Assembly (NCBI GenBank): GCA_025611195.1
Contig: GCA_025611195.1_4718.1
Source of the DNA: a phage
DNA length: 64,000 bases
Direction: 5' to 3' (one strand)
Notes under the pieces: model-generated
Databases searched by the model: none
Told to the model about the DNA's origin: nothing
The model's input: the letters and a program-made list of their open reading frames with translations, nothing else
Part shown: positions 2,969 to 55,291 of the stretch, one piece after another
How the letters are laid out: each line of letters starts with the position of its first letter
How positions within the stretch are numbered: position 1 is the stretch's first letter
Made by a program: the position numbers and the translations under genes

Positions 2969-2974
2969 CATATT

Positions 2975-3006
2975 CCCTCCTCCTTCCCTTACGGGTTGGA
3001 GGAGGG
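2975..3006. terminator. conserved two-tier GC hairpin (family copy, inverted orientation)
   Basis: CCCTCCTCC/GGAGGAGGG 9-bp stem enclosing CCC-TTAC-GGG; lies between convergent genes; A10 run at 3021..3030. Confidence 0.45.
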
Positions 3007-3041
3007 TTATGCCGTCAAGCAAAAAAAAAATGATAGTCACG

Positions 3042-5503: not shown

Positions 5504-5527
5504 GATTGAAATCTCGCTGGCTTGCTT

Positions 5528-5551
5528 CACCTAGGTAATATAGCCGTGAAA
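5528..5551 (-). promoter_or_regulatory. conserved TATATTAC-containing motif (candidate phage promoter)
   Basis: Plus-strand CACCTAGGTAATATAGCCGTGAAA; about 25 nt upstream of ATG 5503 on the minus strand. Confidence 0.45.
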
Positions 5552-5652
5552 AATGTTGGAGTACATCGAATTCCACCACCGCGGCTATTTTATGGGCTAA
5601 GAGCCTAAACCAATCATCTTCGAAATCATCATCTACGAAACAGGAACCTATC

Positions 5653-7118: not shown

Positions 7119-7122
7119 AAAC

Positions 7123-7154
7123 CATCCTCCCAACCCGTCAGGGAAGGGAGGATG
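7123..7154. terminator. conserved two-tier GC hairpin (family copy)
   Basis: CATCCTCCC/GGGAGGATG stem with loop AACCCGTCAGGGAA; between convergent genes. Confidence 0.45.
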
Positions 7155-18821: not shown

Positions 18822-18911
18822 CTAAAAAAGATCCTCTGTTTTTCACGTTAATTAAACAACGTATTGATTTCTATTTAACGCAATACGAACATTGTACGTA
18901 TGCATCATGAA

Positions 18912-18929
18912 GGTAATATAGTCGTGAAA
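18912..18929 (-). promoter_or_regulatory. conserved TATATTAC-containing motif (candidate phage promoter)
   Basis: Plus-strand GGTAATATAGTCGTGAAA; about 90 nt upstream of the first gene of the small-gene cluster (ATG 18821). Confidence 0.45.
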
Positions 18930-19031
18930 GGATTTGCATTAAAGCAAGGGTTTTGTTTTAAGAAGGGATGGATTTAGAAGAGGTGTTTCAAGGAAGGTAA
19001 ACGAGGATAGGTATTTTGATTTAAGTAAGAT

Positions 19032-19396: not shown

Positions 19397-19557
19397 GCTC
19401 GTCTCTAAAGGACTTCGCTCCTCCCCCGTCCCCCGAAGGGGCCGAGGTCGTGGAAATTTTACTTTCCAAATACATTTACAACATCTGTAAACTTTTACTC
19501 CAGGTACTTAATCTTATCATTAGAAATTATAAAGAGAAGAATAAACACAAACATAAA

Positions 19558-19589
19558 CCTTCCTCCAACCCAACAGGGAAGGAGGAAGG
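19558..19589 (-). terminator. conserved two-tier GC hairpin (family copy)
   Basis: CCTTCCTCC/GGAGGAAGG stem, loop AACCCAACAGGGAA; directly after stop of 19603..20496. Confidence 0.45.
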
Positions 19590-22241: not shown

Positions 22242-24290
22242 TTAAATACCCTTGGTTCCTTTCACGTGATGTGCAATTTCTTCAACCATTGCACGCAGGG
22301 CACGAAGTTGTTGGTCGTGTTCATACCAACCGCCTAACAGAACCCCGCTATACACCATGGTGTCAAGACTTAACAGCCCTTTATCTGATACGTTGATCAT
22401 TTCCGGGAACTGTTCTTGAACACGCTGTGCGATAACACCGATCTTCTCGACATCAGGATCGTAGTTGTGACGGAAACGAGCGAGTCCGCTATGTGCCATC
22501 TCACGTAAACGATCACTGAAAGATTCCGGATGGTCTTTCAGATAACGGATGTCATGTTTACTGCGTTCATCAGAACGGATGTATGCGTTAGGAACATCGA
22601 TGTTGCTGTTGAAGTACAGCGCACTACCGCCACCGGCAGAGTTCCCCCAATAGAAGCTGGTTAAGATGCTACCCCCGTTACCTGTAACGTGCACCGTGCT
22701 GCCTACACGGGTTCCCCCACTACCATCAACGAAGACAAGCTTGTTCCCGCTGTAAGAACCCCAGAACAAACGGCTGTCGATGATGTTTGTTGCAGCGAGG
22801 CGAGCGTTACGTGGTGTAGAATACACGGTGTTAACATCTTGCTGTGCTTGCGCATCGGAAGCGATACCGTAGTTCTGAACATTCCCTAAGCCTACCTGGG
22901 CTTTGTTAACGGCGTGAGGGTTATCCCGACGGTTAGCGTGAGCATTAACCAGATCGCCCGCCAGTTTTTGAATAGCCCAGTTGGTAGATTGTGGCGTCAT
23001 ATAGCGGTTAGTTGCAGAACCACCTTGCGCTTCAGCTTGGTTAGCAGTTGGATAGTTCTCAACGCTTCCCAACCCTACCTGTGCTTTAGACACTTGGTGC
23101 GGGTTGTTCTTGTCGGCGATGTGCGCATTAAGCGGAACTAACGCGAAGGTCTCAATGGACGCTTTGGTGGTGTTCGGTGCCATTAATCGGTTAGCTGCAA
23201 CACCCGCACGCGCTTCTTCTTCAGAAGCCATCGGATAGTCTTGCACATTCCCTAACCCAACCTGCGCCTTGGTTACTCTGTGTGGGTTGTTGTAATCGGC
23301 TTTATGCGCATTAAGTGGAATCAATGCGAACTGTTCAATCGCTGCAACGGTACGTAGCGGTGTCATGAAACGGTTGTTCGCTGTTCCGGCTTTCGCCTCA
23401 TCATCCGAAGCGGTCGGGAAGTTATCAACGTTCCCAAGGTTAACCTGTGCTTTGGTGACGCTATGTGGGTTATCTCGACGGTTAGCATGCGCGTCGACTA
23501 GATCGCCCGCCAGTTTAGCAATCGCCCATCCAACCGTCTGTGCTGTCATGTATCGGTCAGGTGCGGTACCGGCTTCTGCCTCCGCCTTGTTTGCGGTAGG
23601 ATAGTTCTGTACGTTACCTAGTCCGACTTGGGCTTTTGTTACTTCATGCGGGTTATCGGTACGGTTAGCGTGCGCGTAATGCAGATCGGTCAGATCTTTA
23701 TCCGCTGCTTGCATGTCTTTGCGTAACTGATCGATTGCCGCCCAGAGACGGTTATCGGACGCAGCATCACCGATGAGTATTGCGGCTTTTAGCGAATAGA
23801 TCGCTAAGCAAAGATGTTCGGTACCGTAGATAGCACTAACGTGGTGGATGTGTGGTTCAGGCGGATAAAGTTCCGGTTTGTTCTTGATGTCGTCCCAGTT
23901 GATCGGACGATCGTCAAGTTTGAGTTCTTCGATAGCCTGATACAACGCATCAATAAGACTTACGTAAACACCACCGATGATACGATAGTCGTTAACTAAT
24001 GTACCCTCGATGTCATCGTTGATGATGGCGATGGCCGCACAGATTTCTTTACCAGCGTAAAGCGTAGCGTCCTGATACAAGAAAATGGGTTTGTAATCCA
24101 CGCCGCGTACCAGTGTCTTACCGGTAAGCTTTTCGGTGATAACCAGACTTTCGGTGAAGAACGGTCCGCCATCGAGGGCGTAACATTTATTCTCGGTTCG
24201 TGGAACGGTGTGCTCTTCACCAACGATGTGGTTGCTATCGAGCGTGCCGGTCCAGTCCTCGGGGTACTTCAGGGTAATTGGTGTTGACAT
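22242..24290 (-). CDS. tail fibre protein with C-terminal intramolecular chaperone (S74-like) domain
   Basis: Five NPHxVTKAQVGLGNVxNY repeats; C-terminal ~110 aa beginning SDERSKHDI resembles the self-cleaving chaperone domain of fibres/endosialidases. Confidence 0.8.
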   Translation of the reverse strand: MSTPITLKYPEDWTGTLDSNHIVGEEHTVPRTENKCYALDGGPFFTESLVITEKLTGKTLVRGVDYKPIFLYQDATLYAGKEICAAIAIINDDIEGTLVNDYRIIGGVYVSLIDALYQAIEELKLDDRPINWDDIKNKPELYPPEPHIHHVSAIYGTEHLCLAIYSLKAAILIGDAASDNRLWAAIDQLRKDMQAADKDLTDLHYAHANRTDNPHEVTKAQVGLGNVQNYPTANKAEAEAGTAPDRYMTAQTVGWAIAKLAGDLVDAHANRRDNPHSVTKAQVNLGNVDNFPTASDDEAKAGTANNRFMTPLRTVAAIEQFALIPLNAHKADYNNPHRVTKAQVGLGNVQDYPMASEEEARAGVAANRLMAPNTTKASIETFALVPLNAHIADKNNPHQVSKAQVGLGSVENYPTANQAEAQGGSATNRYMTPQSTNWAIQKLAGDLVNAHANRRDNPHAVNKAQVGLGNVQNYGIASDAQAQQDVNTVYSTPRNARLAATNIIDSRLFWGSYSGNKLVFVDGSGGTRVGSTVHVTGNGGSILTSFYWGNSAGGGSALYFNSNIDVPNAYIRSDERSKHDIRYLKDHPESFSDRLREMAHSGLARFRHNYDPDVEKIGVIAQRVQEQFPEMINVSDKGLLSLDTMVYSGVLLGGWYEHDQQLRALRAMVEEIAHHVKGTKGI

Positions 24291-27976: not shown

Positions 27977-30130
27977 TTATAACGTTTCGAAGTCTTTTGC
28001 CTTGATGACCGCGTTGAAGTTGGCAAGGAATTCCTTAAGTAATGCTTGGAAAACATCGCGGAACGCCGCGTTCGTCTTCAAGCTGGTTAAATAATCGTTC
28101 TTAAGGTAATCACTAAGCTTACCGATCTTCTGCATTGTCACGCCTTCATCGTTCTCTCCGGGTTCCTGGCTATTGATATTAGCCCACTTGATCCCTTCGA
28201 GATCGCCATCAGCAAGGAAGTTAGCTGGCGTCTCATCATCGTTAAGGATTTTGATCGTGTCGCTGGATTCAATACCACCGTAAGCTTCCAGAAGCTGGTT
28301 GACGGTCAACTTATTGACGTTGATTGAACCATTAGCACCATCGATACCGAGTCCGGTACCCGTGATAGACGTTGCTGAAAGATCGATTGGTCCGGTTAAC
28401 TTACCCCCATTGATAGGGAGCGCACCGACTTGTTCGGCTGTGTGCGTGTGATCTGCTAACGCCGCGAACGCTGCAATCGACTTGTAAGTCGAGTACGGTG
28501 TCATGTACGCCGTCTGGTTAGTCCTGTCAGCAGCTTGCACATCGGTGGCGACAGCAAAGTCCTGTACGTTCCCTAACCCCACTTGTACCTTGGTTACTTC
28601 ATGCGGGTTACTCTTATCGACAACGTGTGCTGCAAAACCATCACCTGCTAAAGCGATGATCGCTGCTTTTGTCGCAGCCGGTGTCATATAGCGGTTGGTC
28701 GCTACACCTGTTTGCGCTTCCACATCAGAAGCAACAGGGTAGTTCTCAACACTCCCCAACCCAACCTGGGTTTTCGTTACCCTGTGCGGGTTCTCGGTAT
28801 TTGCGATGTGGCTACTGAACCCTTGACCAGCCATTTGCTCGATCGCGTAACGAACAAGTATTGGTGTCATGTACTTGTTGTTAGCCTGACCGTCGATCGC
28901 TTCTTGGGTAGTAGCAACCCCAAAGTTCTGCACACTTCCCAGACCGACTTGGGCTTTTGTCACCCCATGCGGGTTATTGGTGTTACCGATATGTTCGGTT
29001 ACGGTTGGGGTGATTAACGCTGCGATAGCGGCGGCTGTGGTCGCAGGCGTCATGTATTTGTTGTTAGCAACACCCGCACCAGCTTCCCCATTAGACGCTA
29101 CACCATAGTTCTGTACGTCCCCCAGCCCTACCTGTGCTTTCGTAACAGCATGAGGGTTGTTATTATCCTCGGTATGGGTTGTTAACGTAGCGTTGACATG
29201 ATCGATGCGTGTACTTAAGCCGTCCGTGATTGCCTTGATTGCTGCTCGTACACCCGCTGGAGTCGTGTACAGATTAGTGGCTGTACCGGTAACGGTTGTA
29301 TTATCATCGGCTACACCGTAGTTCTCAACGTCTCCGAGTCCCACCTGGGCTTTGGTCACCTTGTGTGGGTTGTTGCGGTTACTGATGTGTGCGGCGGCAC
29401 TATCACCACTAAGGTTAGCGATCATCTTGCGCGTCATCGCCAACGTCATGTACAGATTTTCACCGACAGTTTCCAGATCGCTCTCAGTCGCTGTTGTGAA
29501 ATTCTGCACATTCCCTAAGCCCACCTGGGCTTTCGTAACGCCGTGGGGATTATCGCGTCGATTCTCATGCTGTACTAACGCAGTCATTGCTTTATTGAAC
29601 CCTTCTTCAAGCGGTTCTTTCAATGACTCGATTGCAGCCACCACATCGTCCCACGTCATTGTGTCGGTTTCGACATTATGTTGGTGGTTGATTGGTGGGA
29701 ATACAGAAGGAACGTCGGCAACCTTTTCCCAGAACGTAACACGAGGATCGTAAAGGTTGTTGGCTAAAACGTTAAGAATTTGTTGTTGATCAAGTGTAAA
29801 CTCACCCCCCAGTGAATAGTAGTTCAGTTGCAACTGTCCACTGAATGCGGTGTCCAACAGCATGATGGAACCGTATAATTCCAGGCCGGTCAGCGCAGCC
29901 ATGGCACGGAAGGGGTGAGTGCATAAAAAGTCAACGCCTTCTTCCAGATACGCGTTTGTTTCAGGGTTGTAGATCTTTAACCCATTACGAAAATAGGGTG
30001 CGTATTTAGGAACGAGAAAGTTAAATCCGGTCCCCGTGGAAGGACGGACAGTGACGAGTTCTTCTGGAACCCATGCGCCATCCAAATTCCCCTGCGGGTT
30101 ATACGGAAGGCGTTTAATTTCATCTGTCAT
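27977..30130 (-). CDS. tail fibre protein
   Basis: Six NPHxVTKAQVGLG(N/S/D)V(Q/E)N(F/Y) repeats; N-terminal region similar to that of the 22242..24290 fibre; no chaperone domain. Confidence 0.8.
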   Translation of the reverse strand: MTDEIKRLPYNPQGNLDGAWVPEELVTVRPSTGTGFNFLVPKYAPYFRNGLKIYNPETNAYLEEGVDFLCTHPFRAMAALTGLELYGSIMLLDTAFSGQLQLNYYSLGGEFTLDQQQILNVLANNLYDPRVTFWEKVADVPSVFPPINHQHNVETDTMTWDDVVAAIESLKEPLEEGFNKAMTALVQHENRRDNPHGVTKAQVGLGNVQNFTTATESDLETVGENLYMTLAMTRKMIANLSGDSAAAHISNRNNPHKVTKAQVGLGDVENYGVADDNTTVTGTATNLYTTPAGVRAAIKAITDGLSTRIDHVNATLTTHTEDNNNPHAVTKAQVGLGDVQNYGVASNGEAGAGVANNKYMTPATTAAAIAALITPTVTEHIGNTNNPHGVTKAQVGLGSVQNFGVATTQEAIDGQANNKYMTPILVRYAIEQMAGQGFSSHIANTENPHRVTKTQVGLGSVENYPVASDVEAQTGVATNRYMTPAATKAAIIALAGDGFAAHVVDKSNPHEVTKVQVGLGNVQDFAVATDVQAADRTNQTAYMTPYSTYKSIAAFAALADHTHTAEQVGALPINGGKLTGPIDLSATSITGTGLGIDGANGSINVNKLTVNQLLEAYGGIESSDTIKILNDDETPANFLADGDLEGIKWANINSQEPGENDEGVTMQKIGKLSDYLKNDYLTSLKTNAAFRDVFQALLKEFLANFNAVIKAKDFETL

Positions 30131-31515: not shown

Positions 31516-31525
31516 ACAAACATAA

Positions 31526-31557
31526 CCCTCCTCCAACCCATCAGGGAAGGAGGAGGG
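31526..31557. terminator. conserved two-tier GC hairpin (family copy)
   Basis: CCCTCCTCC/GGAGGAGGG stem, loop AACCCATCAGGGAA; between convergent genes. Confidence 0.45.
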
Positions 31558-31566
31558 AATATGTTG

Positions 31567-43608: not shown

Positions 43609-45405
43609 TCAATCGATTATGTCACGATCGTTAATTTCTACAATTTCTTCATCGAATCGACCGACGTCTTTCTTCAAGCCTGCATTTGTTGCTGCAACGT
43701 CATTTGCGATTTGTGGGGTAATGATTAACCGACCGCGTTCATCGATAGGTGCGTACATACTGAACTTCTGACGTCCGGTTGGTTCGGAGTGTGGAAGATT
43801 CAGATAGCTTGCGCAGAACGGGATGGAACCACTCACCAAACGACTCTCGTCAGCCAACGCAGCACCGCCTGCATTTTGGCTCTGGAGAACAACATGCGTG
43901 CTCACTTTGAACAGCATGCAATCGCCCGGTGACTGAATCGATGTTGCCACTTTCTCACGCTTATCACGATTGCTCTGGATATTGAGAATCGCTTCCGTTG
44001 CAACTTGATTGCGCAACGCCTTCTGTACATCGCGATTGGTCATCTCTTTACGGTTGTTCTGTCGTTTACCACGTTCCGTGGTTTTAAGATGGAACCCCAG
44101 TTTAAAGATGCTTTTACGCACATCCTCCATGACGTATTCCAACACCATCAATTCCTTACCGAACATCGTCGTGGTATCAACACGACTCATTTCGATAGTA
44201 ACGTTGTCAATCAGATACGCCATAAATTCGTAGAAGTCGTCGCAAGGAATATTTTCCTGTTTGAACTTCTTCTGTTGAATTTCATCAACGTAAAGATCGA
44301 GACTGTCGATGTGGTGGTTTACATCACGCAACAAACGCGCATCCGCATTGTTGTTATTAAAGATAATCAAACCGAGTAATGTACGCCAATGGTCTGGCGC
44401 ATTAGCGAACTCTTCAACCGGATAGTCTTCCGGGAAACGATCGTAATAACGGTCGATGAGATATAAGAACGCGCCGACAAGGCCAAGAACAATACGTTCC
44501 GTACCTCCACGTCTTACAGCGATTTGAATATCGGGATGTTTATAACGTACAGCGTTAGCGCTACGGCTTTTACCGCTTTTGCTGATACTAAAGCCTTTAG
44601 GAATAACCCCCATGGTGCGATAGATTACCCATTGGTCGCGCGGAAAATCGCGTTCAGCAAGATTCCGTCCGGTGACGGCTTCGACGCCAGCAAAACGTCG
44701 GAAACATTCACCCACCCCATACTTCGCAAAGAGATAGTGACCCAGTGTGGTTACGCTGGTGTGGTTGATGTTGTCACCGTTCACTTTACTTTGTTTGGTA
44801 AGATGATAGATTTGCGACCAGGGTAACGACAGGTAATGACGATAATCGATACCCGTTGGTGTATCATTGCTCAGGAACTGATACGGTGTACGTTTAACCG
44901 TGATTTTGTCACGCGGAAGCATGATGAACGCCATGTCTTTCGTGTAACTGATTACAGGGTCAGCGAGCACTGCACTGAGAATGAAGTTCGCACCACGTAG
45001 ACGCATTTTACCACCCTGACCTACCGCGGGCAATAGGAGAGGATGTCGGATAATGCAGTAGTCCTTTCCTGGTTCGCGGCGGTCACCTGATTCCATCGCA
45101 CCATACCAGCGGAATTCTAGCATCACCATAAACACGTCGGAAGGTGCAAGGTCGAAGGTCAGCTTACCGCTATCCTTCCCTTTGGTTTTCTTTCCTCCGC
45201 TTAAGTAGTGGAACTGTTCGCGGGCCATACAACGACGCAGGCCATGATACACCAGATCCTTAGGTAAACTATCTTTGCTGTTCCGCCAAAGACGATCAAC
45301 ATAGGACTCAACATCTTGCATCTTATCGACGACGATGTTGCGTGCTATCTTCTCGTTCATCTTCGGTGCAAGCTCAGCGACAGCTTTGCAGAATCTAGGA
45401 TCCAT
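43609..45405 (-). CDS. hypothetical protein
   Basis: 598-aa ORF with no internal stops. Confidence 0.55.
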   Translation of the reverse strand: MDPRFCKAVAELAPKMNEKIARNIVVDKMQDVESYVDRLWRNSKDSLPKDLVYHGLRRCMAREQFHYLSGGKKTKGKDSGKLTFDLAPSDVFMVMLEFRWYGAMESGDRREPGKDYCIIRHPLLLPAVGQGGKMRLRGANFILSAVLADPVISYTKDMAFIMLPRDKITVKRTPYQFLSNDTPTGIDYRHYLSLPWSQIYHLTKQSKVNGDNINHTSVTTLGHYLFAKYGVGECFRRFAGVEAVTGRNLAERDFPRDQWVIYRTMGVIPKGFSISKSGKSRSANAVRYKHPDIQIAVRRGGTERIVLGLVGAFLYLIDRYYDRFPEDYPVEEFANAPDHWRTLLGLIIFNNNNADARLLRDVNHHIDSLDLYVDEIQQKKFKQENIPCDDFYEFMAYLIDNVTIEMSRVDTTTMFGKELMVLEYVMEDVRKSIFKLGFHLKTTERGKRQNNRKEMTNRDVQKALRNQVATEAILNIQSNRDKREKVATSIQSPGDCMLFKVSTHVVLQSQNAGGAALADESRLVSGSIPFCASYLNLPHSEPTGRQKFSMYAPIDERGRLIITPQIANDVAATNAGLKKDVGRFDEEIVEINDRDIID

Positions 45406-45444: not shown

Positions 45445-46881
45445 TTACTTTTTCGATGACGTCTTCTCAAGAATCTTGAAAAAGGTCATACCTATACCGA
45501 CAACGGCCGCAGTTATACTCGCAGCGGCTTTCCAAACATCGACGTTACGTTGACGTCGCGCTTCTTCCGCTTCACGTTGTCTTTTTGCCTCTTCATCACG
45601 TCGACGTATCTCAGCAGCAAACTCGTCGTGCTTACGTTTGGCTTCTTCGTCTCGACGACGAAGTTCAGCGACGAATTCTTCATGTTTGCGTTTGGCCTCG
45701 TCATCACGACGTTTTAAATCAGCTTGATAATCTTCGTGTATTTGTCTACGTAGATCATCTTGACGTTTCATTTCGGCTTGGTGTTGTTCCATCCTACGTT
45801 TTGATTCGTCTCTAAGCTGATCGAGTTCGGCTTTGTGTTGTTCATCGCGCAGCTTTGCGTCGGCGCGATGCGCTTCGTGCATCTGTGCGATAACCGCCTT
45901 GTGTTCATCCGCCATACGCCGCATTTCAGCCATCACCCCTTTAAGGGTTTCTTCTGATGACTTACGTTCATAGCTACGCTGGTCGAAATCATTTTTGTAG
46001 GCTTCTTTTTGGATGGGGTCGCGCCAATGCAATGCCGATTCACGTGTCGGAAAAACATTATACTTCCACATCTCTTTTTCCAAATCTTCGACCGGTACGA
46101 AGACGGAGTCGTTATTCCCGAAGGTAACCAACATACCTGGCGCGCCTGCTCCATTCGTTGGTTTTATTTCGAACGCTTTCCCCAGCACGTTAACCCATAG
46201 GCTATACGGATTATGAAAGTCGGGCGGCGTCCAATGGATAGTGAGTTGCGTTCCGAGAATCCGGAAACCCTCTGTCTTTCCTGTCAAGCTCCGCGCACAT
46301 GTTGCGATGTAGGGGTGATCAATCCCTTTCGTAACATGGTCTGCGCTTTTGTATTCTCCTTTAACTTTTACGATTGCCACGTTGATTTGCGCGACATAAA
46401 TAGGTTGATTAAAGTTCAACGTGTTGAGGTCAATTTGACATATCTCATCCAGCGTATCGTACCAGTCTTGCTGGTCTAATAGACGCGGTATTTTCTCTGT
46501 GTTAACGGTGCGATGGATATGCGGTTTCCTTATCGCATAACCGGTGCCGTTTTTAACGCGGAGTATATCCCGACGTCTACCCGCGTAGACGAAGTTTCTG
46601 AATGCACCATTCGCATTAGATATGTCATGGCTGTCAACTATTACAGGACTACGAAATTTTGAACGTCGTACGATCCTGAATGTATTGCCGTCCTCAACTC
46701 TACCAGGAATGTACTGGAACATATTGTCGGAGGTGATAACCAACACGGTATGGCCGGATTCATTAATACATGCCCACCCTAATTCCAGGTCATACAACGG
46801 TTCAGCATAACCGTCAATGCGATATGCGTGCGTACCATCCCACGGTTCGAACGCGGTATCACATATTGGCATGGAGGGCAT
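45445..46881 (-). CDS. coiled-coil protein with tandem RRRDEEAKRKHEEF repeats and C-terminal TM anchor
   Basis: ORF 45445..46887 (TTG) trimmed to ATG 46881 with GGAGG upstream; about three 18-aa charged repeats then hydrophobic AAASITAAVVGIGMTFF. Confidence 0.5.
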   Translation of the reverse strand: MPSMPICDTAFEPWDGTHAYRIDGYAEPLYDLELGWACINESGHTVLVITSDNMFQYIPGRVEDGNTFRIVRRSKFRSPVIVDSHDISNANGAFRNFVYAGRRRDILRVKNGTGYAIRKPHIHRTVNTEKIPRLLDQQDWYDTLDEICQIDLNTLNFNQPIYVAQINVAIVKVKGEYKSADHVTKGIDHPYIATCARSLTGKTEGFRILGTQLTIHWTPPDFHNPYSLWVNVLGKAFEIKPTNGAGAPGMLVTFGNNDSVFVPVEDLEKEMWKYNVFPTRESALHWRDPIQKEAYKNDFDQRSYERKSSEETLKGVMAEMRRMADEHKAVIAQMHEAHRADAKLRDEQHKAELDQLRDESKRRMEQHQAEMKRQDDLRRQIHEDYQADLKRRDDEAKRKHEEFVAELRRRDEEAKRKHDEFAAEIRRRDEEAKRQREAEEARRQRNVDVWKAAASITAAVVGIGMTFFKILEKTSSKK

Positions 46882-47031
46882 CGTCAACCTCCATCAGATT
46901 GAAAACTATCACGCATAATGCATTTCCCTTTTCTTGTTCTTATCAAGCCGACAGCCGACGGTTTCAGCATCGTCCCTAGCGCGAGAACGACCTTACGTGT
47001 TGTCTATGCCTTATTAATCGCAGGCGTCTGT

Positions 47032-47055
47032 CACCTAGGTAATGTAAGCGTCAAA
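47032..47055 (-). promoter_or_regulatory. variant of the conserved motif (candidate promoter)
   Basis: Plus-strand CACCTAGGTAATGTAAGCGTCAAA; about 150 nt upstream of ATG 46881. Confidence 0.35.
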
Positions 47056-47089
47056 TTTTTTCTATTTATAACGATAAACGGCATAGAAA

Positions 47090-47119
47090 CCTCCCCCAAC
47101 CCTTACGGGCTGAGGGAGG
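47090..47119 (-). terminator. GC hairpin (family copy, inverted orientation) in capsid-gene 3' region
   Basis: CCTCCC/GGGAGG stem enclosing CCC-TTAC-GGG; a second hairpin CCGGA..TCCGG lies at 47140..47155. Confidence 0.4.
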
Positions 47120-47218
47120 CTGACTTATGTATCACGGTGCCGGATGAATGTCCGGTGCAATGAAACCATCCGCAACGTTGTCGTCAAGAATATCATCCAA
47201 CGAAGCAGCTACGGTAGT

Positions 47219-49441
47219 TCAGTTAGTCTGAACCGGCAGCTTGATGTTTTCAGTGTAGACCTTACGCAGGTTCACAACGTTAATCAGACCCAGCAGCGGG
47301 CAGTTGTTAACGAAGCGGCAGCGAGGCTGAACCATGGTTTCTTTAGAAACCTGACCGTTACGGGTAACCTGAGCAACAGATACCAGTTCCGGTACATACA
47401 GGAACATACCGAAGGTCAGCGGATCCGGAGAACCCTGGATACCACGAGACAGGGTCACGAAGATCTTATCACGCAGCAGGACGTTCGGGTTATCTACAAC
47501 CACGAAGTTGAAGCTTACACCAACGGTACGGAAATCACCATCGGTCTGCAGGAACTGCGGGATGTAGTTGTCGGTTGCTACTACGCAACGCGGTTTCTCA
47601 TCAGCGTTGGAAGACAGCAGCTGCAGAGCTGGCTGATAACCAGACTCGGAGTACATGCGATATGCCATCTCACGAATCACGTTCATGATCGCAGCGGACA
47701 CTTCGGCACGACGTTCTGCAGTGGTGGTACCCTGAACAGATTTCGCCAGGTCCAGATTGATTTCTTCGAACCACGGACGGATCAGGTAACGACCGAAACC
47801 TTCGATCTGGATATCACCGAACTGACGGAAGCGAGAGGTCGCAACCGCTTTCAGTGCATCTTTGTAGCTGAACAGTTTCTCAACCATCAGGTTGTCGAAA
47901 CGTGCGTTAGCAGCTTGGATCAGAACGTCCAGGTCAGCAGCGTTTTCTTCCCAATCCAGCGGACGAGGAATAGAGAACGGAGCCAGCAGGCCGATTGCGT
48001 AACGTTCTTGCTTCATGTTGAAGTCAAGGTGTTTACCACGTTCACGACGGTTGCTGTTGTTACGGCGAATACGCAGTTCGTAACCAACCAGTTTGAAGCT
48101 CAGGTCGTCAGCCAGGTCTTTAAATTCTTGGCTCTTACGCGGCTGTTCGATGTTGTCCTGATCAACCAGGCGATACAGTTCAGCGTTAGCACCGTTAACA
48201 CGCAGACCTGCTTTCTCTACGTTGGAAGAACCGTAAACTTCGATAGCCAGCTGAGCAGCAGATTTCGCATCGATGATGTCCTGCAGCGCTTCAGCTTTCG
48301 CGCCTTTAACGTCAACGGTGTTCTCATCAACGAAGATGGAGTGGGTGTCGAACGCCAGGGTCATTTTGCGGAAGTCGCCTTCCAGGGATTTCTGGAAACC
48401 GTTGGTAATCAGACCGGATACGTCGAACGGAACGTAAGAGGTCTTGCTGTGCTTGGCTGATTTGATTTCCACCAGGATTTTGGTCAGCGTGATCTGAGCA
48501 TCCAGCGCGTCGGTGTTGTCGCTGTAACCGTTAGCCAGAATGCTATCGTCTTCAGCGATACCGATCATGTCGATCAGTTTATCAACAGCCAGGTAAGACG
48601 TTTTGTAAGTTACGCCTTTGATCTCGATGTCGCGCGGAGCAACGATAGTTTTGTCAACGAAGTACTGCGCGTTAGCATCGTCAGCACGATAGATCGGATG
48701 CAGATCGGTCACGTCGTTGGACAGAACGTCGTTGTACATGAACGCATCCAGCAGCGGACGACGTACCCAATCAGCCGGAGTACCGTCAGCGTTACGACGC
48801 AGGTGGTTGAACACCAGCGGACGACGGAAAGATACATCATAACCGATCTGGTTCGGAGCCAGAACGATGGTGTTGTACAGTTCGTTACCCATGCGGCTCA
48901 GACGAGAAGCCTTCACGTTGAACACAACGGAGTACGGCATCATGTCACGCAGTTCTTTCTGGTCGTAGGACAGCTGAACCAGTTCTTCAGATTCGCAACC
49001 GCAGGAATCAGCAGCCATCATGACGAAGTTAGAGCTGTCAACTTCACGGCCAGACGGAGTGGTGCTGATGTTCATGGAACGTGCTTGTTTAGCATATTCC
49101 ACCGGGTTGCCATGAGCCAGCATGATCAGTGCTGCTGCACGAGCCTGCTGTGCGTTCATGGTGAACAGCTGTTCTTCAATACGCTGCTTCTCTTCCGGAG
49201 TGGTGGTTTCGAAGCCCAGCATGGACAGAACCGGTTCTTCTGCTTTACGGATGTCGCTGCTGAAGCTCTTAACATCCATATCGTTAACCAGTTTGTCCAT
49301 GGATTTGAAATCAACCTTAGAAGCAGATTCCATAGACAGGAAGGTGTTCTCCAGACCTTTGTCTGCTGGTTTGCTACCATTAGCGGTCAGGAACTGGCGA
49401 GTGGCCGCGACCTGTTGGCTAAGAAGGGTTTTATCATTCAT
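47219..49441 (-). CDS. putative major capsid protein (jumbo-phage type)
   Basis: 740 aa, strongest host-optimal codon bias in the window, AAAGGA SD; size fits phiKZ-like capsid proteins; the assignment is inferred, not motif-proven. Confidence 0.6.
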   Translation of the reverse strand: MNDKTLLSQQVAATRQFLTANGSKPADKGLENTFLSMESASKVDFKSMDKLVNDMDVKSFSSDIRKAEEPVLSMLGFETTTPEEKQRIEEQLFTMNAQQARAAALIMLAHGNPVEYAKQARSMNISTTPSGREVDSSNFVMMAADSCGCESEELVQLSYDQKELRDMMPYSVVFNVKASRLSRMGNELYNTIVLAPNQIGYDVSFRRPLVFNHLRRNADGTPADWVRRPLLDAFMYNDVLSNDVTDLHPIYRADDANAQYFVDKTIVAPRDIEIKGVTYKTSYLAVDKLIDMIGIAEDDSILANGYSDNTDALDAQITLTKILVEIKSAKHSKTSYVPFDVSGLITNGFQKSLEGDFRKMTLAFDTHSIFVDENTVDVKGAKAEALQDIIDAKSAAQLAIEVYGSSNVEKAGLRVNGANAELYRLVDQDNIEQPRKSQEFKDLADDLSFKLVGYELRIRRNNSNRRERGKHLDFNMKQERYAIGLLAPFSIPRPLDWEENAADLDVLIQAANARFDNLMVEKLFSYKDALKAVATSRFRQFGDIQIEGFGRYLIRPWFEEINLDLAKSVQGTTTAERRAEVSAAIMNVIREMAYRMYSESGYQPALQLLSSNADEKPRCVVATDNYIPQFLQTDGDFRTVGVSFNFVVVDNPNVLLRDKIFVTLSRGIQGSPDPLTFGMFLYVPELVSVAQVTRNGQVSKETMVQPRCRFVNNCPLLGLINVVNLRKVYTENIKLPVQTN

Positions 49442-51861: not shown

Positions 51862-51887
51862 ACGCAAAAAAAAAAGATTGTACGGTT

Positions 51888-51919
51888 CCCTCCTCCAACC
51901 CGTAAGGGAAGGAGGAGGG
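51888..51919. terminator. conserved two-tier GC hairpin (family copy)
   Basis: CCCTCCTCC/GGAGGAGGG stem, loop AACCCGTAAGGGAA; A10 run at 51866..51875; between convergent genes. Confidence 0.45.
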
Positions 51920-51934
51920 TTATGACCGCGGTGG

Positions 51935-53383: not shown

Positions 53384-54286
53384 TTACTTAGCCTTTGAGT
53401 TATGCGGACTAACATGCTGTTGTACTCGTTGGATTGTATCGTAGTACGGGTTAGATTGGTTGAACATGTTGTTGTGTGGGGGATAGCCATATGGCGCATT
53501 TTGCCTTGTTGGTGAGAAACCTTGTTGAGAAGGACGGTTTGAATTAACCGCGAGTACGTAGTAAACCAAATTTTGACGGTCGAATGTTCCTTCGTTTTTG
53601 AAAGTGTCGGCGTAGGCTTTTACCGCTGGAGTGAGCCTATCACCATCGGCTGTAATAATTGTACCGTCTGGGTAAACTTCCCGAACGACGCACCATGTTC
53701 CGATGAGAACATCTTTAGGTGCTGTATTACCATATCCGGTTGTAACGGTAAGGTAAGTATCGAACCCTTCAGAACAACAAGGATGACGATAGATGGGTCC
53801 TGTCATTTCCGTTCTATCGGTATCGCTACATTGTTCTATTGAGAGCGATGATGTGTCGGTTTTGAAATTGTCAAATTCTTTCTTTAAGTCGATTACGGGT
53901 TCTTTCGTATAGTACTTCTTGATTGCTTTGACGTAAAGATCAGGAACGGTTGTCAGCAATCCGTTATACCTGATTCTCAGGTTTTCGAGTAATCCAAAGA
54001 TGCTCGCGCATGCCTGTTCGCGAGGTTTTGTAAGATAAGAGATCCCCTCAGGAACGCTGGGATCTTTGAGAAAGAAGATTGCGTTATTGTCGTTGTGCGA
54101 TGCGTTGAAGAAAACGATTGATTCGATATATACGGAGCATAGGCTGTCATTGGCGTCGTCAGATAACACCCAGATGCACTCATCGGTCGTCTTGTTTAAA
54201 AGTTCTGTTTTGTCGACCAAACGTTGTTTCATTGCGAGGAAATGTGCCTGTTGTTCAGCAGTTAATTCACGATAAATAGTGGTCAT
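53384..54286 (-). CDS. hypothetical protein, paralog of 54372..55145
   Basis: ORF 53384..54364 trimmed to ATG 54286 (AAGGAG upstream); shared segment YRHPCCSEGFDTYLTVTTGYG...WCVVREVYPDGTIIT vs YIHPECHTTYDRYLTITGG...WRMIREIYPDGRIVT. Confidence 0.5.
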   Translation of the reverse strand: MTTIYRELTAEQQAHFLAMKQRLVDKTELLNKTTDECIWVLSDDANDSLCSVYIESIVFFNASHNDNNAIFFLKDPSVPEGISYLTKPREQACASIFGLLENLRIRYNGLLTTVPDLYVKAIKKYYTKEPVIDLKKEFDNFKTDTSSLSIEQCSDTDRTEMTGPIYRHPCCSEGFDTYLTVTTGYGNTAPKDVLIGTWCVVREVYPDGTIITADGDRLTPAVKAYADTFKNEGTFDRQNLVYYVLAVNSNRPSQQGFSPTRQNAPYGYPPHNNMFNQSNPYYDTIQRVQQHVSPHNSKAK

Positions 54287-54371
54287 GTTGGGCTCCTTGA
54301 TTACGATAAGGATGATTGCGGTTTTGTGGGTTTGGTAGGGCCCTAAACAAAGGAACCCTACCAATATTAGG

Positions 54372-55145
54372 TTAATCAGGATCGGCGTAGAAATGGTGAG
54401 GATAGCCGGAGTACGATCCTGCGTTACCGGCTATGGATTCTTTCTGGGAATCGACGACGAGCGCATAGAACTGTCGGGAATTTGTTAGCGTTGAGAAATA
54501 AGCGGAAAGGACTTTTTCATTCAATGCATCACAAGGTAGGCAGGTGCGACCGCAAAACGTCACGATACGGCCGTCAGGATAGATCTCACGAATCATTCTC
54601 CACTCACCGATATCCACTGGTGATGGCGCTGCTACACCACCTGTTATCGTTAAGTAACGATCGTACGTGGTATGGCATTCAGGATGAATATAGATCGGCT
54701 TGTTCGTTTCGACAGGTTCCGAAGTATCTCGACGACTAAGAAGCTCAACGACTTCAAGATAAATCGTTGGTAGATCGCGGAGAATACCGGTGCTACGACG
54801 TTTCTTTGTGATTCGCGGACGAATCTCGTTGAGAGCGTATTCGAGCTTACGTTCAGCTTCGTACGCATCGAGTTTTATCAAGCGACCCGGTTCATCGGAA
54901 TGATCCTGAGTTACGTAAACGAAATACGTGTCGCCTTTTGCAGCGTGAAAGATTCGAGCGACCTTAAATGTTTCTACGGTACGATAACCAAGGCGCGATT
55001 GATTTTCCACAGGAGAAAATATCCAATGCCGTCCTTCGTCAGCCTCAACAATTTCGTTGAAACTATCTGTCTGTTCTGGGACCTGGTAGTCAGCCAGTAA
55101 TGTGTCGAGAGCATCATCAGCCAGTTTGATGTAAATATCTGTCAT
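54372..55145 (-). CDS. hypothetical protein, paralog of 53384..54286
   Basis: ATG 55145 with GAGGA upstream; preceded by the TATATTAC-type motif and a palindrome. Confidence 0.5.
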   Translation of the reverse strand: MTDIYIKLADDALDTLLADYQVPEQTDSFNEIVEADEGRHWIFSPVENQSRLGYRTVETFKVARIFHAAKGDTYFVYVTQDHSDEPGRLIKLDAYEAERKLEYALNEIRPRITKKRRSTGILRDLPTIYLEVVELLSRRDTSEPVETNKPIYIHPECHTTYDRYLTITGGVAAPSPVDIGEWRMIREIYPDGRIVTFCGRTCLPCDALNEKVLSAYFSTLTNSRQFYALVVDSQKESIAGNAGSYSGYPHHFYADPD

Positions 55146-55201
55146 GTTTGTATCCTCGGTTATTAAGAGAAATTTACAGTGATAACAGTAAGCGTTGTTA
55201 T

Positions 55202-55225
55202 CACCTAGGTAATATAGTCGCGAAA
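55202..55225 (-). promoter_or_regulatory. conserved TATATTAC-containing motif (candidate promoter) overlapped by a palindrome
   Basis: Plus-strand CACCTAGGTAATATAGTCGCGAAA; about 57 nt upstream of ATG 55145; inverted repeat GTGATAACA-N8-TGTTATCAC at 55179..55204. Confidence 0.45.
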
Positions 55226-55259
55226 TAAACTGGAGTAATGCGCTTAAGACAGCATAAAC

Positions 55260-55291
55260 CCCTCTCCCAACCCGTCAGGGAAGGGAGAGGG
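55260..55291 (-). terminator. conserved two-tier GC hairpin (family copy)
   Basis: CCCTCTCCC/GGGAGAGGG stem, loop AACCCGTCAGGGAA; immediately after stop of 55296..56663. Confidence 0.45.

Follow-up and report, generated by a model that had tools for sequence, protein, structure and literature searches.

What would a nucleus-forming jumbo phage connect with a protein that carries a globular head on a long charged helix and ends in a hydrophobic segment? The question is raised by an open reading frame (ORF) at positions 45445–46881 of the window, the 64,000-nucleotide (nt) stretch of phage contig GCA_025611195.1_4718.1 analysed here. At the nt level the source region is 96.7% identical to the nucleus-forming Escherichia jumbo phage vB_EcoM_Goslar (Chimalliviridae). 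According to the ORF list and direct reading of the sequence, the ORF lies on the minus strand, starts with ATG at 46881 and encodes 478 amino acids (aa) plus a stop codon. Its coordinates correspond to Goslar_00040 (gp40 or gp040), annotated 'hypothetical protein', with 98.1% aa identity. The ORF is the allele of gp40, a gene already known as hypothetical, in a Goslar-like jumbo phage that forms a nucleus. The protein consists of a β-rich head of ~305 residues, an uninterrupted charged helix of ~141 residues and, at the C-terminus, a hydrophobic helix followed by a short basic tail. We tentatively propose, with a probability of about 40%, that gp40 acts as an early tether, anchored by its tail, that joins a lipid membrane (the EPI vesicle or the inner membrane) to the chimallin shell. 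What is new here is the reading of a core early gene as a tail-anchored protein with a modular stalk of five-turn repeats that varies by whole units.

A core gene of chimalliviruses expressed at the vesicle stage

gp40 belongs to the core gene family cg35, the PHIKZ122 family (PhiKZ gp122, PhiPA3 gp138, 201phi2-1 gp202, RAY gp001). Table S3 of Prichard 2023 equates cg35 with Goslar gp040, PhiKZ gp122 and RAY gp001*. In the genome-figure legend of the same paper an asterisk marks genes unique to chimalliviruses, and by our own reading the asterisk in the table likewise makes cg35 Chimalliviridae-specific. The gene order major capsid protein (MCP), cg35, non-virion RNA polymerase (nvRNAP) subunit is preserved in 11 further lineages, and the gap from cg35 to the nvRNAP subunit gene is 10–50 nt family-wide. 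In all chimallivirus lineages examined the slot is occupied: by PhiKZ gp122, PhiPA3 gp138, Eowyn gp144, RSL2 ORF116, FLC9 gp91, Ea35-70 gp001, pTD1 gp064, SEGD1 gp077 and the corresponding genes of PA1C and PCH45, and it is filled in metagenomic relatives too.

The syntenic orthologues share one plan: a head, the motif G-h-F/Y-x-T-x-E-E-A, a variable charged helix and a hydrophobic or amphipathic extreme C-terminus. Estimated from motif positions, the charged helix measures ~40–196 aa; the distance from head motif to anchor, estimated likewise, is ~149–196 aa in the Goslar lineage, by far the longest, and ~40–105 aa elsewhere. An ERS.ERK(D)SSE motif stands immediately before the anchor in PCH45, RSL2, FLC9 and SEGD1 and at the start of the stalk in Goslar-type proteins. 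This difference in position suggests that the repeat array expanded between motif and anchor in the Goslar lineage.

Sequence searches reach just the Goslar-like proteins and two distant clusters. A hidden Markov model search with the head profile over 1.84 billion representatives returned three clusters only, so sequence methods cannot reach the PhiKZ-type orthologues. A word-indexed search with a mixed-lineage alignment added solely the PhiKZ gp122 cluster, and a scan of IMG/VR found Goslar-like contigs only. Profile–profile comparison (hhalign) with the PhiKZ, PhiPA3, Eowyn and PCH45 proteins gave a weak match (E=0.002, probability 14%). When the head model (pLDDT 51) was searched against BFVD with Foldseek, the 31 best matches, with TM-scores of 0.2–0.3 and E values down to 3.6e-10, were all uncharacterized jumbo-phage or unnamed proteins. 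Four BFVD matches have the sizes of syntenic or gp122-like genes (Eowyn 357, RSL2 209, 201phi2-1 345, Deimos-Minion 331). Searches of Pfam, NCBIfam and PHROGs yielded no meaningful family for gp40, the hits being a sub-threshold FUSC match in Pfam and two weak PHROG matches to families of unknown function, and neither Foldseek nor a profile search of PDB sequences matched a PDB entry.

Expression data place gp40 early. Knockdown of ChmA keeps the Goslar genome in the EPI vesicle (Armbruster preprint), and RNA-seq of knockdown versus control at 30 minutes post infection is available in three replicates (Supplementary Table 2 of the same preprint). The log2 fold changes on knockdown were +0.94, +1.09 and +0.85 for gp040, +0.94, +1.09 and +0.74 for gp039, and +0.97, +1.17 and +0.81 for gp038. 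The major capsid gene gp041 changed by −4.0, −3.9 and −4.4, a ~16-fold drop (Armbruster preprint). Because gp40 is expressed without a phage nucleus, like gp039 and gp038, it is an early gene of the EPI-vesicle stage, co-expressed with an nvRNAP subunit and outside the capsid module. In PhiKZ, reads for PHIKZ122 over time were 3405, 4255, 2580, 2200 and 945, close to the maximum at the first point and highest at the second (Gerovac 2025 source data). Silencing of chmA leaves PHIKZ122 high, as it does the nvRNAP gene PHIKZ074, and the MCP transcript rises late (Gerovac 2025).

The region between gp41 and gp40 contains a terminator hairpin, in which pairing is preserved through substitutions in relatives, and an early-promoter-like motif. 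The latter, TTTGACGCTTACATTACCTAGGTGA, is unchanged in four diverged relatives whose coding DNA is ~85% identical. It is one of four intergenic copies in the window, with the consensus TTTCACGaCTATATTACCTAGGTGA, and these precede all four nucleus-independent blocks of gp001–050 (gp004–001, gp021–014, gp040–037 and gp047–044), the blocks being assigned by our own matching of ORFs in the window to the gene map of Goslar. Goslar itself has an exact match only at the gp040 copy, and its gp047 copy lies inside annotated gp047. The motif is probably the virion-RNA-polymerase early promoter of Goslar-like phages. It presumably resembles the AT-rich PhiKZ early-promoter consensus, which we take to be TATATTAC.

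Several other features of this region were recorded. Near-identical GC-rich hairpins of the form CCCTCCTCCAACCC-GTAA-GGGAAGGAGGAGGG recur at gene ends in the window and look like a shared intrinsic-terminator design; those at 47087 and 55258 lie ~20 nt upstream, in the sense of transcription, of an early-promoter-like motif. The gp40 5' leader (46979–47064, minus strand) contains blocks that are 100% conserved where the coding DNA of relatives is ~85% identical, and one relative (L008) carries a 51-nt insertion in it. The predicted leader structure shows little covariation among relatives, and an Rfam scan of the gp41–gp40 intergenic region gave no match.

Head, repeat stalk and hydrophobic C-terminus

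The 18-aa tandem repeats first noticed in the sequence-only reading are real. BLOSUM autocorrelation over residues 311–447, scored against 500 shuffles, gave z=10.3 at lag 18, z=6.5 at lag 36 and z=3.5 at lag 54. That reading had counted about three repeats. When written in rows of 18, however, residues 306–446 (~141 aa) stay in register throughout and make up 7.8 units, so the three flagged repeats are the clearest part of a longer array. The best-conserved units are units 5–7, DDEAKRKHEEFVAELRRR / DEEAKRKHDEFAAEIRRR / DEEAKRQREAEEARRQRN.

The DNA presents a different picture. Repeats of 54 bp had been placed at about 45580–45750, and three 54-nt copies do lie at 45583–45744, but they are only 67–70% identical; fainter in-register copies extend as far as 45876. 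Across the array, neighbouring 54-nt units are 33–70% identical, and the longest exact lag-54 run is 9 nt. Tandem Repeats Finder reported no repeat in the DNA, even at a score of 30; the repeat is therefore one of protein rather than a clean DNA tandem array. Identical residues of adjacent units use the same codon in 19 of 46 cases, with 22.4 expected from codon usage. The repeats are old and maintained by selection on the protein, and gain or loss of a unit is an occasional evolutionary event rather than a hypermutable switch. A slippage-prone contingency locus was rejected on the same grounds: diverged DNA copies (60–70% identical), an empty Tandem Repeats Finder result and codon sharing at or below expectation.

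Repeat number does vary among relatives, as comparison of their genomes showed. The gp40 alleles in public assemblies measure 460, 478, 489 and 507 aa and share at least 90% identity in the head; distant homologues of 413 and 406 aa are 27–30% identical over the head. Products of the flanking genes are constant in length among relatives (206, 740 and 598 aa). Every length difference of gp40 lies in the stalk and keeps both the reading frame and the repeat register: the 460-aa alleles have lost 18 aa, the 507-aa alleles have gained 18 aa, and an 11-aa insertion or deletion (indel) separates two stalk types. Goslar-like alleles have 6.8, 7.8, 8.4 or 9.4 units, and the 413-aa homologue has 3.6. 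Alleles of 489 and 507 aa, which differ by exactly one unit, occur together in one 90%-identity cluster. Expressed as length, the stalk spans 18–26 nm among near-identical phages (a spread of about 7 nm) and roughly 6–29 nm family-wide.

The 54-nt segment absent from the 460-aa alleles is bracketed by a 17/18-nt direct repeat with copies 54 nt apart, on which slipped or illegitimate recombination could plausibly have acted; no other indel has a visible substrate. Alleles combine two types of head with two types of stalk in each of the four possible ways, and intragenic recombination therefore reshuffles these modules. One 507-aa allele, for example, is 98% identical to the 478-aa gp40 in the head and 74% in the stalk. 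The expectation that repeat number differs between relatives therefore holds, but the DNA is not prone to slippage in the usual sense, and the three units originally flagged keep the same number in every Goslar-like allele; the indels lie more N-terminal in the stalk.

The stalk was modelled by AlphaFold (AF2) as one continuous helix over residues 310–475, with pLDDT 71–90 across 320–440. Of its residues, 55% are D/E/K/R and 16% LIVMFYW, and the net charge is ~0. Opposite charges are paired at i,i+4 in 28% of positions and like charges in 4%. The Fourier spectrum of hydrophobicity peaks at 3.65 residues with a power of 45.1, compared with 14.8 at 3.5. Positions 11 and 15 of the repeat carry an apolar stripe (Phe, Leu, Ile or Met), positions 4 and 13 carry Ala, and core-like positions are spaced 4-3-4-3-4 over the 18 residues. 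The gp40 stalk lacks the combination of 3.5-residue periodicity and apolar a/d positions that marks a canonical heptad coiled coil; with a period of ~3.65, 16% hydrophobic and 55% charged residues, the coiled coil originally assigned to the protein is not established. Since one 18-residue unit makes five ideal helical turns (18/5 = 3.6; ~2.7 nm per unit), the stalk may instead be an ER/K-like single α-helix (SAH) or a straight non-heptad bundle, that is, a non-canonical coiled coil.

The head was modelled with low confidence (pLDDT 55 in the full-length model and 51 for the head alone), and its strands recur in both models. Homologues have the head motifs NES.H, LW.NVLGKA..I and VFPT.E.A in common.

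At the other end lies AAASITAAVVGIGMTFF, 17 uncharged residues whose hydrophobicity no other window of gp40 exceeds (KD17 1.82). It has W-K on one side and K on the other and ends 10 residues from the C-terminus. A hydrophobicity scan found no N-terminal hydrophobic or signal-like segment, the N-terminus being polar. The layout is that of a tail-anchored protein: the sole strongly hydrophobic window lies less than 30 residues from the C-terminus, and gp40 has neither a signal peptide nor a second transmembrane (TM) segment. Residues 448–478 are 93–97% identical in all Goslar-like alleles, and a comparable 17-residue uncharged run is present in the 27–30%-identical homologues P0015–P0017. The single C-terminal TM helix of the sequence-only reading holds as far as the hydrophobic helix itself. 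Spanning of a bilayer is plausible, if borderline, by Eisenberg <H> (0.63) and by a simple Hessa 19-residue sum (+2.8 kcal/mol). The Hessa score is slightly better in P0015 and P0017, and the PhiKZ and PhiPA3 orthologues fail with a sum of ~9. More generally, orthologues from enterobacterial, Ralstonia and Burkholderia phages have 10–17 uncharged C-terminal residues, whereas those of PhiKZ, PhiPA3 and PA1C have an amphipathic helix only. An [IL][LV]EK tail motif is common to gp40, P0015 and the PhiPA3 and PA1C orthologues.

Candidate roles at the membrane and the shell

The field explicitly lists as open how the vesicle is attached to the nucleus and how DNA passes from one to the other (review; Armbruster preprint). 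More than 95% of Goslar ChmA shells are associated with EPI vesicles, and the vesicle rotates with the phage nucleus, attached 'in some manner' (Armbruster preprint); because the two rotate together, they are physically attached. Our literature search covered Goslar gp40, PHIKZ122 and membrane or tail-anchored proteins of nucleus-forming phages, with most subscription-journal papers outside its scope. It found no functional study, no publication that assigns a function to cg35 or mentions a tail anchor, and no named candidate for the attachment of vesicle to nucleus. gp40 is a candidate because it is restricted to and universal in Chimalliviridae, is expressed at the vesicle stage, carries a membrane-type anchor on a ~21-nm stalk and has an orthologue found near ChmA and ChmB. 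That orthologue is PhiPA3 gp138: GFP pulldowns with ChmA and with ChmB each contained it, ChmA-miniTurboID labelled it, and its role was left open by the authors (Enustun 2023).

A possible course of events is as follows. Without a signal peptide, gp40 would stay in the cytoplasm, and its tail helix would insert post-translationally into a cytoplasm-facing bilayer, that of the EPI vesicle and/or the inner membrane. The head would bind the chimallin shell (ChmA/ChmB) and so tether the membrane to the nascent phage nucleus. The stalk would serve as a spacer that tolerates changes in length; its free variation points to a length-tolerant spacer rather than a precise ruler. gp40 would thereby be a candidate for the attachment that keeps the EPI vesicle at the surface of the nucleus while the genome is handed over and afterwards. 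A further step, in which gp40 or its cg35 orthologues in the vesicle membrane nucleate or capture ChmA/ChmB ~20 nm away and so fix the site of nucleus assembly or genome hand-over, is doubtful.

Several observations weigh against a tether. Placement of gp40 and its orthologues in a membrane or on the EPI vesicle is a prediction from sequence. The anchor is moderately hydrophobic by the two scores given above, and the conserved charged ILEK..KK tail would need to cross the bilayer. Since the PhiKZ, PhiPA3 and PA1C orthologues have no membrane-grade hydrophobic run, membrane spanning is not a conserved property of the whole family. The head model, with pLDDT 51–55, offers no usable binding surface, and stalks that differ by ~7 nm among near-identical phages indicate that no precise spacing is needed. 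Only one gp138 peptide was found in the ChmA pulldown (Enustun 2023). Knockdown data count on both sides. PHIKZ122 was filed under 'core genome, uncharacterized' in an antisense screen, in which each of two oligomers reduced plaquing weakly, a weak decrease of ChmA was scored, and its knockdown was among those strongly perturbing phage transcription at 30 min (Gerovac 2025); these effects speak for the proposal. Against it, the phenotype is weak and could be polar on gp123 (nvRNAP), which starts 10 nt downstream.

The amphipathic C-termini of the Pseudomonas-phage orthologues bear directly on a different arrangement, in which the C-terminal helix docks in the chimallin lattice or another shell protein and the head projects ~20 nm from the shell, where it might capture capsids, ribosomes or mRNA, or PhuZ filaments. 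These orthologues are amphipathic only, yet the PhiPA3 protein is the one labelled by ChmA-miniTurboID and pulled down with ChmA and ChmB. The conserved [IL][LV]EK after the hydrophobic run would suit a protein contact better than a lumenal tail, and a review describes ChmA subunits as themselves linked through interactions of their C-terminal regions. The runs of 10–17 uncharged residues in Goslar-like phages, Eowyn, RSL2, FLC9, SEGD1 and P0015–17, however, are rich in Ala, Gly, Val and Ile and flanked by Trp or Lys, as in membrane anchors. To our knowledge, published cryo-electron tomography of Goslar nuclei describes no 20-nm projections. We consider this shell-embedded arrangement rather unlikely.

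Early expression and the tail-anchor architecture would also suit an inner-membrane factor unrelated to the nucleus, acting in recruitment of translation or nvRNAP assembly to the membrane, in superinfection exclusion or in membrane remodelling during vesicle biogenesis. Tight linkage to the nvRNAP subunit gene throughout the family, with gaps of 10–50 nt, speaks for such a factor. There is also a bacterial precedent: ElaB, YqjD and YgaM of E. coli combine a charged helical region with a Gly/Ala-rich C-tail anchor and bind ribosomes. Yet the proximity of the PhiPA3 orthologue to ChmA and ChmB would go unexplained, and restriction of the family to nucleus-forming phages points to a role related to the nucleus. 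An inner-membrane factor is accordingly improbable in our view.

In all lineages the gene follows directly after the major capsid gene, which raises the idea of a capsid-assembly anchor: a tether by which procapsids would be nucleated or held at the inner membrane, in analogy to the membrane-bound head-assembly chaperone of T4. Chimallivirus capsids assemble on the inner membrane (Prichard 2023; review), and ChmB, one of two baits that recovered the PhiPA3 orthologue, also binds portal and capsids (Enustun 2023). But gp40 is set apart from the capsid gene by a conserved terminator and by an early-promoter-like element of its own; when no nucleus forms, gp040 is still expressed and MCP falls 16-fold, and PHIKZ122 mRNA falls as MCP mRNA rises. 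Neither PhiKZ nor PhiPA3 carries a virion-protein annotation for this gene, unlike its neighbours. A capsid-assembly role, already very improbable, was rejected on the evidence of timing and transcription units.

That gp40 is an ordinary repeat protein with a neutral or contingency-type stalk and an incidental hydrophobic end, a lysis or spanin-like role being a sub-case, is scarcely credible: it lacks a database family annotation and its stalk length varies freely, but it is a core gene at a fixed position across the family, its anchor and last repeat persist where overall identity has fallen to 28%, its repeats are kept in the protein though their codons diverged, and all its indels are in frame and in register. 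A spanin or lysis role was rejected separately, since gp40 has no N-terminal TM segment, periplasmic domain or partner lipoprotein gene, is early, and has capsid and RNA polymerase genes as neighbours.

If gp40 does connect the EPI vesicle to the nascent shell by nucleating or capturing ChmA/ChmB, it would rank as the first tail-anchored organelle tether encoded by a phage, comparable to a golgin or a KASH protein. If the tether proposal is wrong, gp40 would still offer a natural rod domain that changes by whole five-turn units after its DNA repeats have diverged. The natural alleles (6.8–9.4 units, and 3.6 in the distant homologue) form a ready-made ruler series, and E. coli is a tractable Goslar host. 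CRISPRi-ART and antisense knockdown already work on nucleus-forming phages.

Neighbouring features and comparison with known systems

The features discussed here are collected in the table below. Upstream of gp40 lies the major capsid gene (gp41, MCP; 47219–49441; PHROG 3231, E=6.5e-165). Downstream, gp39 starts 39 nt past the gp40 stop, is co-regulated with gp40 in the Goslar RNA-seq, and matches PhiKZ gp123 and others by tblastn. An in-frame TTG at 46887 was considered as an alternative start of gp40 and rejected: it is unlikely because it lies inside the Shine-Dalgarno region, and it conflicts with the Goslar annotation. PhiKZ, PhiPA3 and relatives of the 413-aa type have an extra gene of 150–179 aa between the capsid and cg35 genes, and Goslar-like phages have a 338-nt non-coding gap there with no small gene.

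Table. Positions of gp40, its parts and associated elements, in window coordinates except for the last row, which refers to relatives
Feature	Position	Strand	Basis
Coding sequence, gp40 allele, core gene cg35	45445..46881	-	ORF list, Goslar identity, Prichard 2023 Table S3
N-terminal β-rich globular head, residues 1-305, family-defining	45967..46881	-	low-confidence AF2, recurrent strands, shared motifs
Motif RSYERKSSEE, R302-E311, head/stalk junction	45949..45978	-	comparison with PCH45, RSL2, FLC9, SEGD1
Charged α-helical stalk, residues 306-446, 7.8 18-residue repeats, ~21 nm if fully helical	45544..45966	-	autocorrelation, register table, AF2
Repeat units 5-7, seen by the sequence-only reading, constant number in all Goslar-like alleles	45544..45705	-	register table, allele comparison
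Direct repeat, upstream copy GAACAACACAAAGCCGAA (coding strand), 17/18 nt	45826..45843	-	repeat search
Direct repeat, downstream copy GAACAACACCAAGCCGAA, 17/18 nt	45772..45789	-	repeat search
C-terminal hydrophobic helix AAASITAAVVGIGMTFF, residues 452-468, putative tail anchor	45478..45528	-	top hydrophobicity window
Basic C-terminal tail KILEKTSSKK, residues 469-478	45448..45477	-	sequence reading
Shine-Dalgarno GGAGG, 6 nt before gp40 ATG	46888..46892	-	direct sequence reading
Early-promoter-like motif TTTGACGCTTACATTACCTAGGTGA, ~150 nt upstream of gp40 start	47031..47067	-	repeat family, relatives
Copies of consensus TTTCACGaCTATATTACCTAGGTGA	5527-5563, 18905-18941, 47031-47067, 55201-55237	-	
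Terminator hairpin, 14 bp, GC-rich, ends late MCP transcript, separates gp41 from gp40	47089..47120	-	sequence, relatives
GC-rich hairpin family	2973-3011, 7121-7154, 19556-19589, 31524-31562, 47087-47125, 51886-51924, 55258-55291		
gp39, nvRNAP β-type subunit, PhiKZ gp123 homologue	43609..45405	-	PHROG 2943, E=7e-120
Extra small gene between capsid and cg35 genes	L013/L014 3734-4942; L002 4494-4946; L005 3447-3980		

Elsewhere in the window, 53384–55145 holds two ORFs (326 and 257 aa) where Goslar has just the 62-aa gp047; the offset between window and Goslar rises by ~1.7 kb there, as if accessory genes had been replaced within an early block. Repeats of 183 nt (61 aa), 60–75% identical, were found at 22846–23711 and 28533–29552. 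They sit in the large minus-strand ORFs 22242–24290 and 27977–30130, which correspond to Goslar gp25 and gp29 (annotated YomR-like / Peptidase_S74), and form a second, larger repeat system common to two paralogous, probably fibre-like, genes. Traced through the protein clusters of P0001, P0003 and P0010, complete Goslar-like genomes form contigs of 236–248 kb in many NCBI, ENA and Logan assemblies that carry the label E. coli, Salmonella enterica or Shigella. Such contigs suggest that a strictly lytic Goslar-like jumbo phage is often carried by or co-isolated with enterobacterial isolates.

Among known proteins, the cg35 orthologues resemble gp40 in gene position, in the order of head, charged helix and C-terminus, and in early expression (Goslar, PhiKZ). 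They differ in that the stalk of the Goslar lineage is the longest, has a regular 18-residue repeat and follows rather than precedes the ERS.ERK.SSE motif. The stalk is similar to the ER/K SAH domains of myosin VI, myosin X and caldesmon in its 55% charged residues, net charge of ~0, i,i+4 pairing and unbroken AF2 helix. It departs from them in its hydrophobic stripe every 18 residues and in a charge content below that of classic SAHs; this stripe could instead support a straight, non-supercoiled dimer or trimer. Like lambda Rz-type i-spanins, gp40 pairs a predicted membrane anchor with a charged helical region, but the N-terminal TM segment, periplasmic coiled coil, o-spanin partner and late expression of spanins do not apply to it.

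Two further systems come closer to the proposed tether. ElaB, YqjD and YgaM (DUF883) likewise have no signal peptide and combine a charged helix with a Gly/Ala-rich anchor and a few basic residues at the end; gp40 differs from them in having no Pfam DUF883 match, a much larger head and stalk, and a phage origin. Golgins (giantin, golgin-84) and KASH/nesprin proteins are C-terminally anchored coiled-coil rods that bridge a membrane to a compartment tens of nm away. gp40 shares with them a predicted cytoplasmic head on a long helical rod and a single putative C-terminal anchor that would be inserted after translation, as a functional analogy only: there is no kinship in sequence or fold, the gp40 stalk is non-heptad and far more charged, and for gp40 both insertion and tethering are proposals. 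By analogy, then, gp40 most resembles eukaryotic tail-anchored tethers in its putative mechanism and the C-tail-anchored proteins of E. coli in its predicted topology, and it is homologous to neither.

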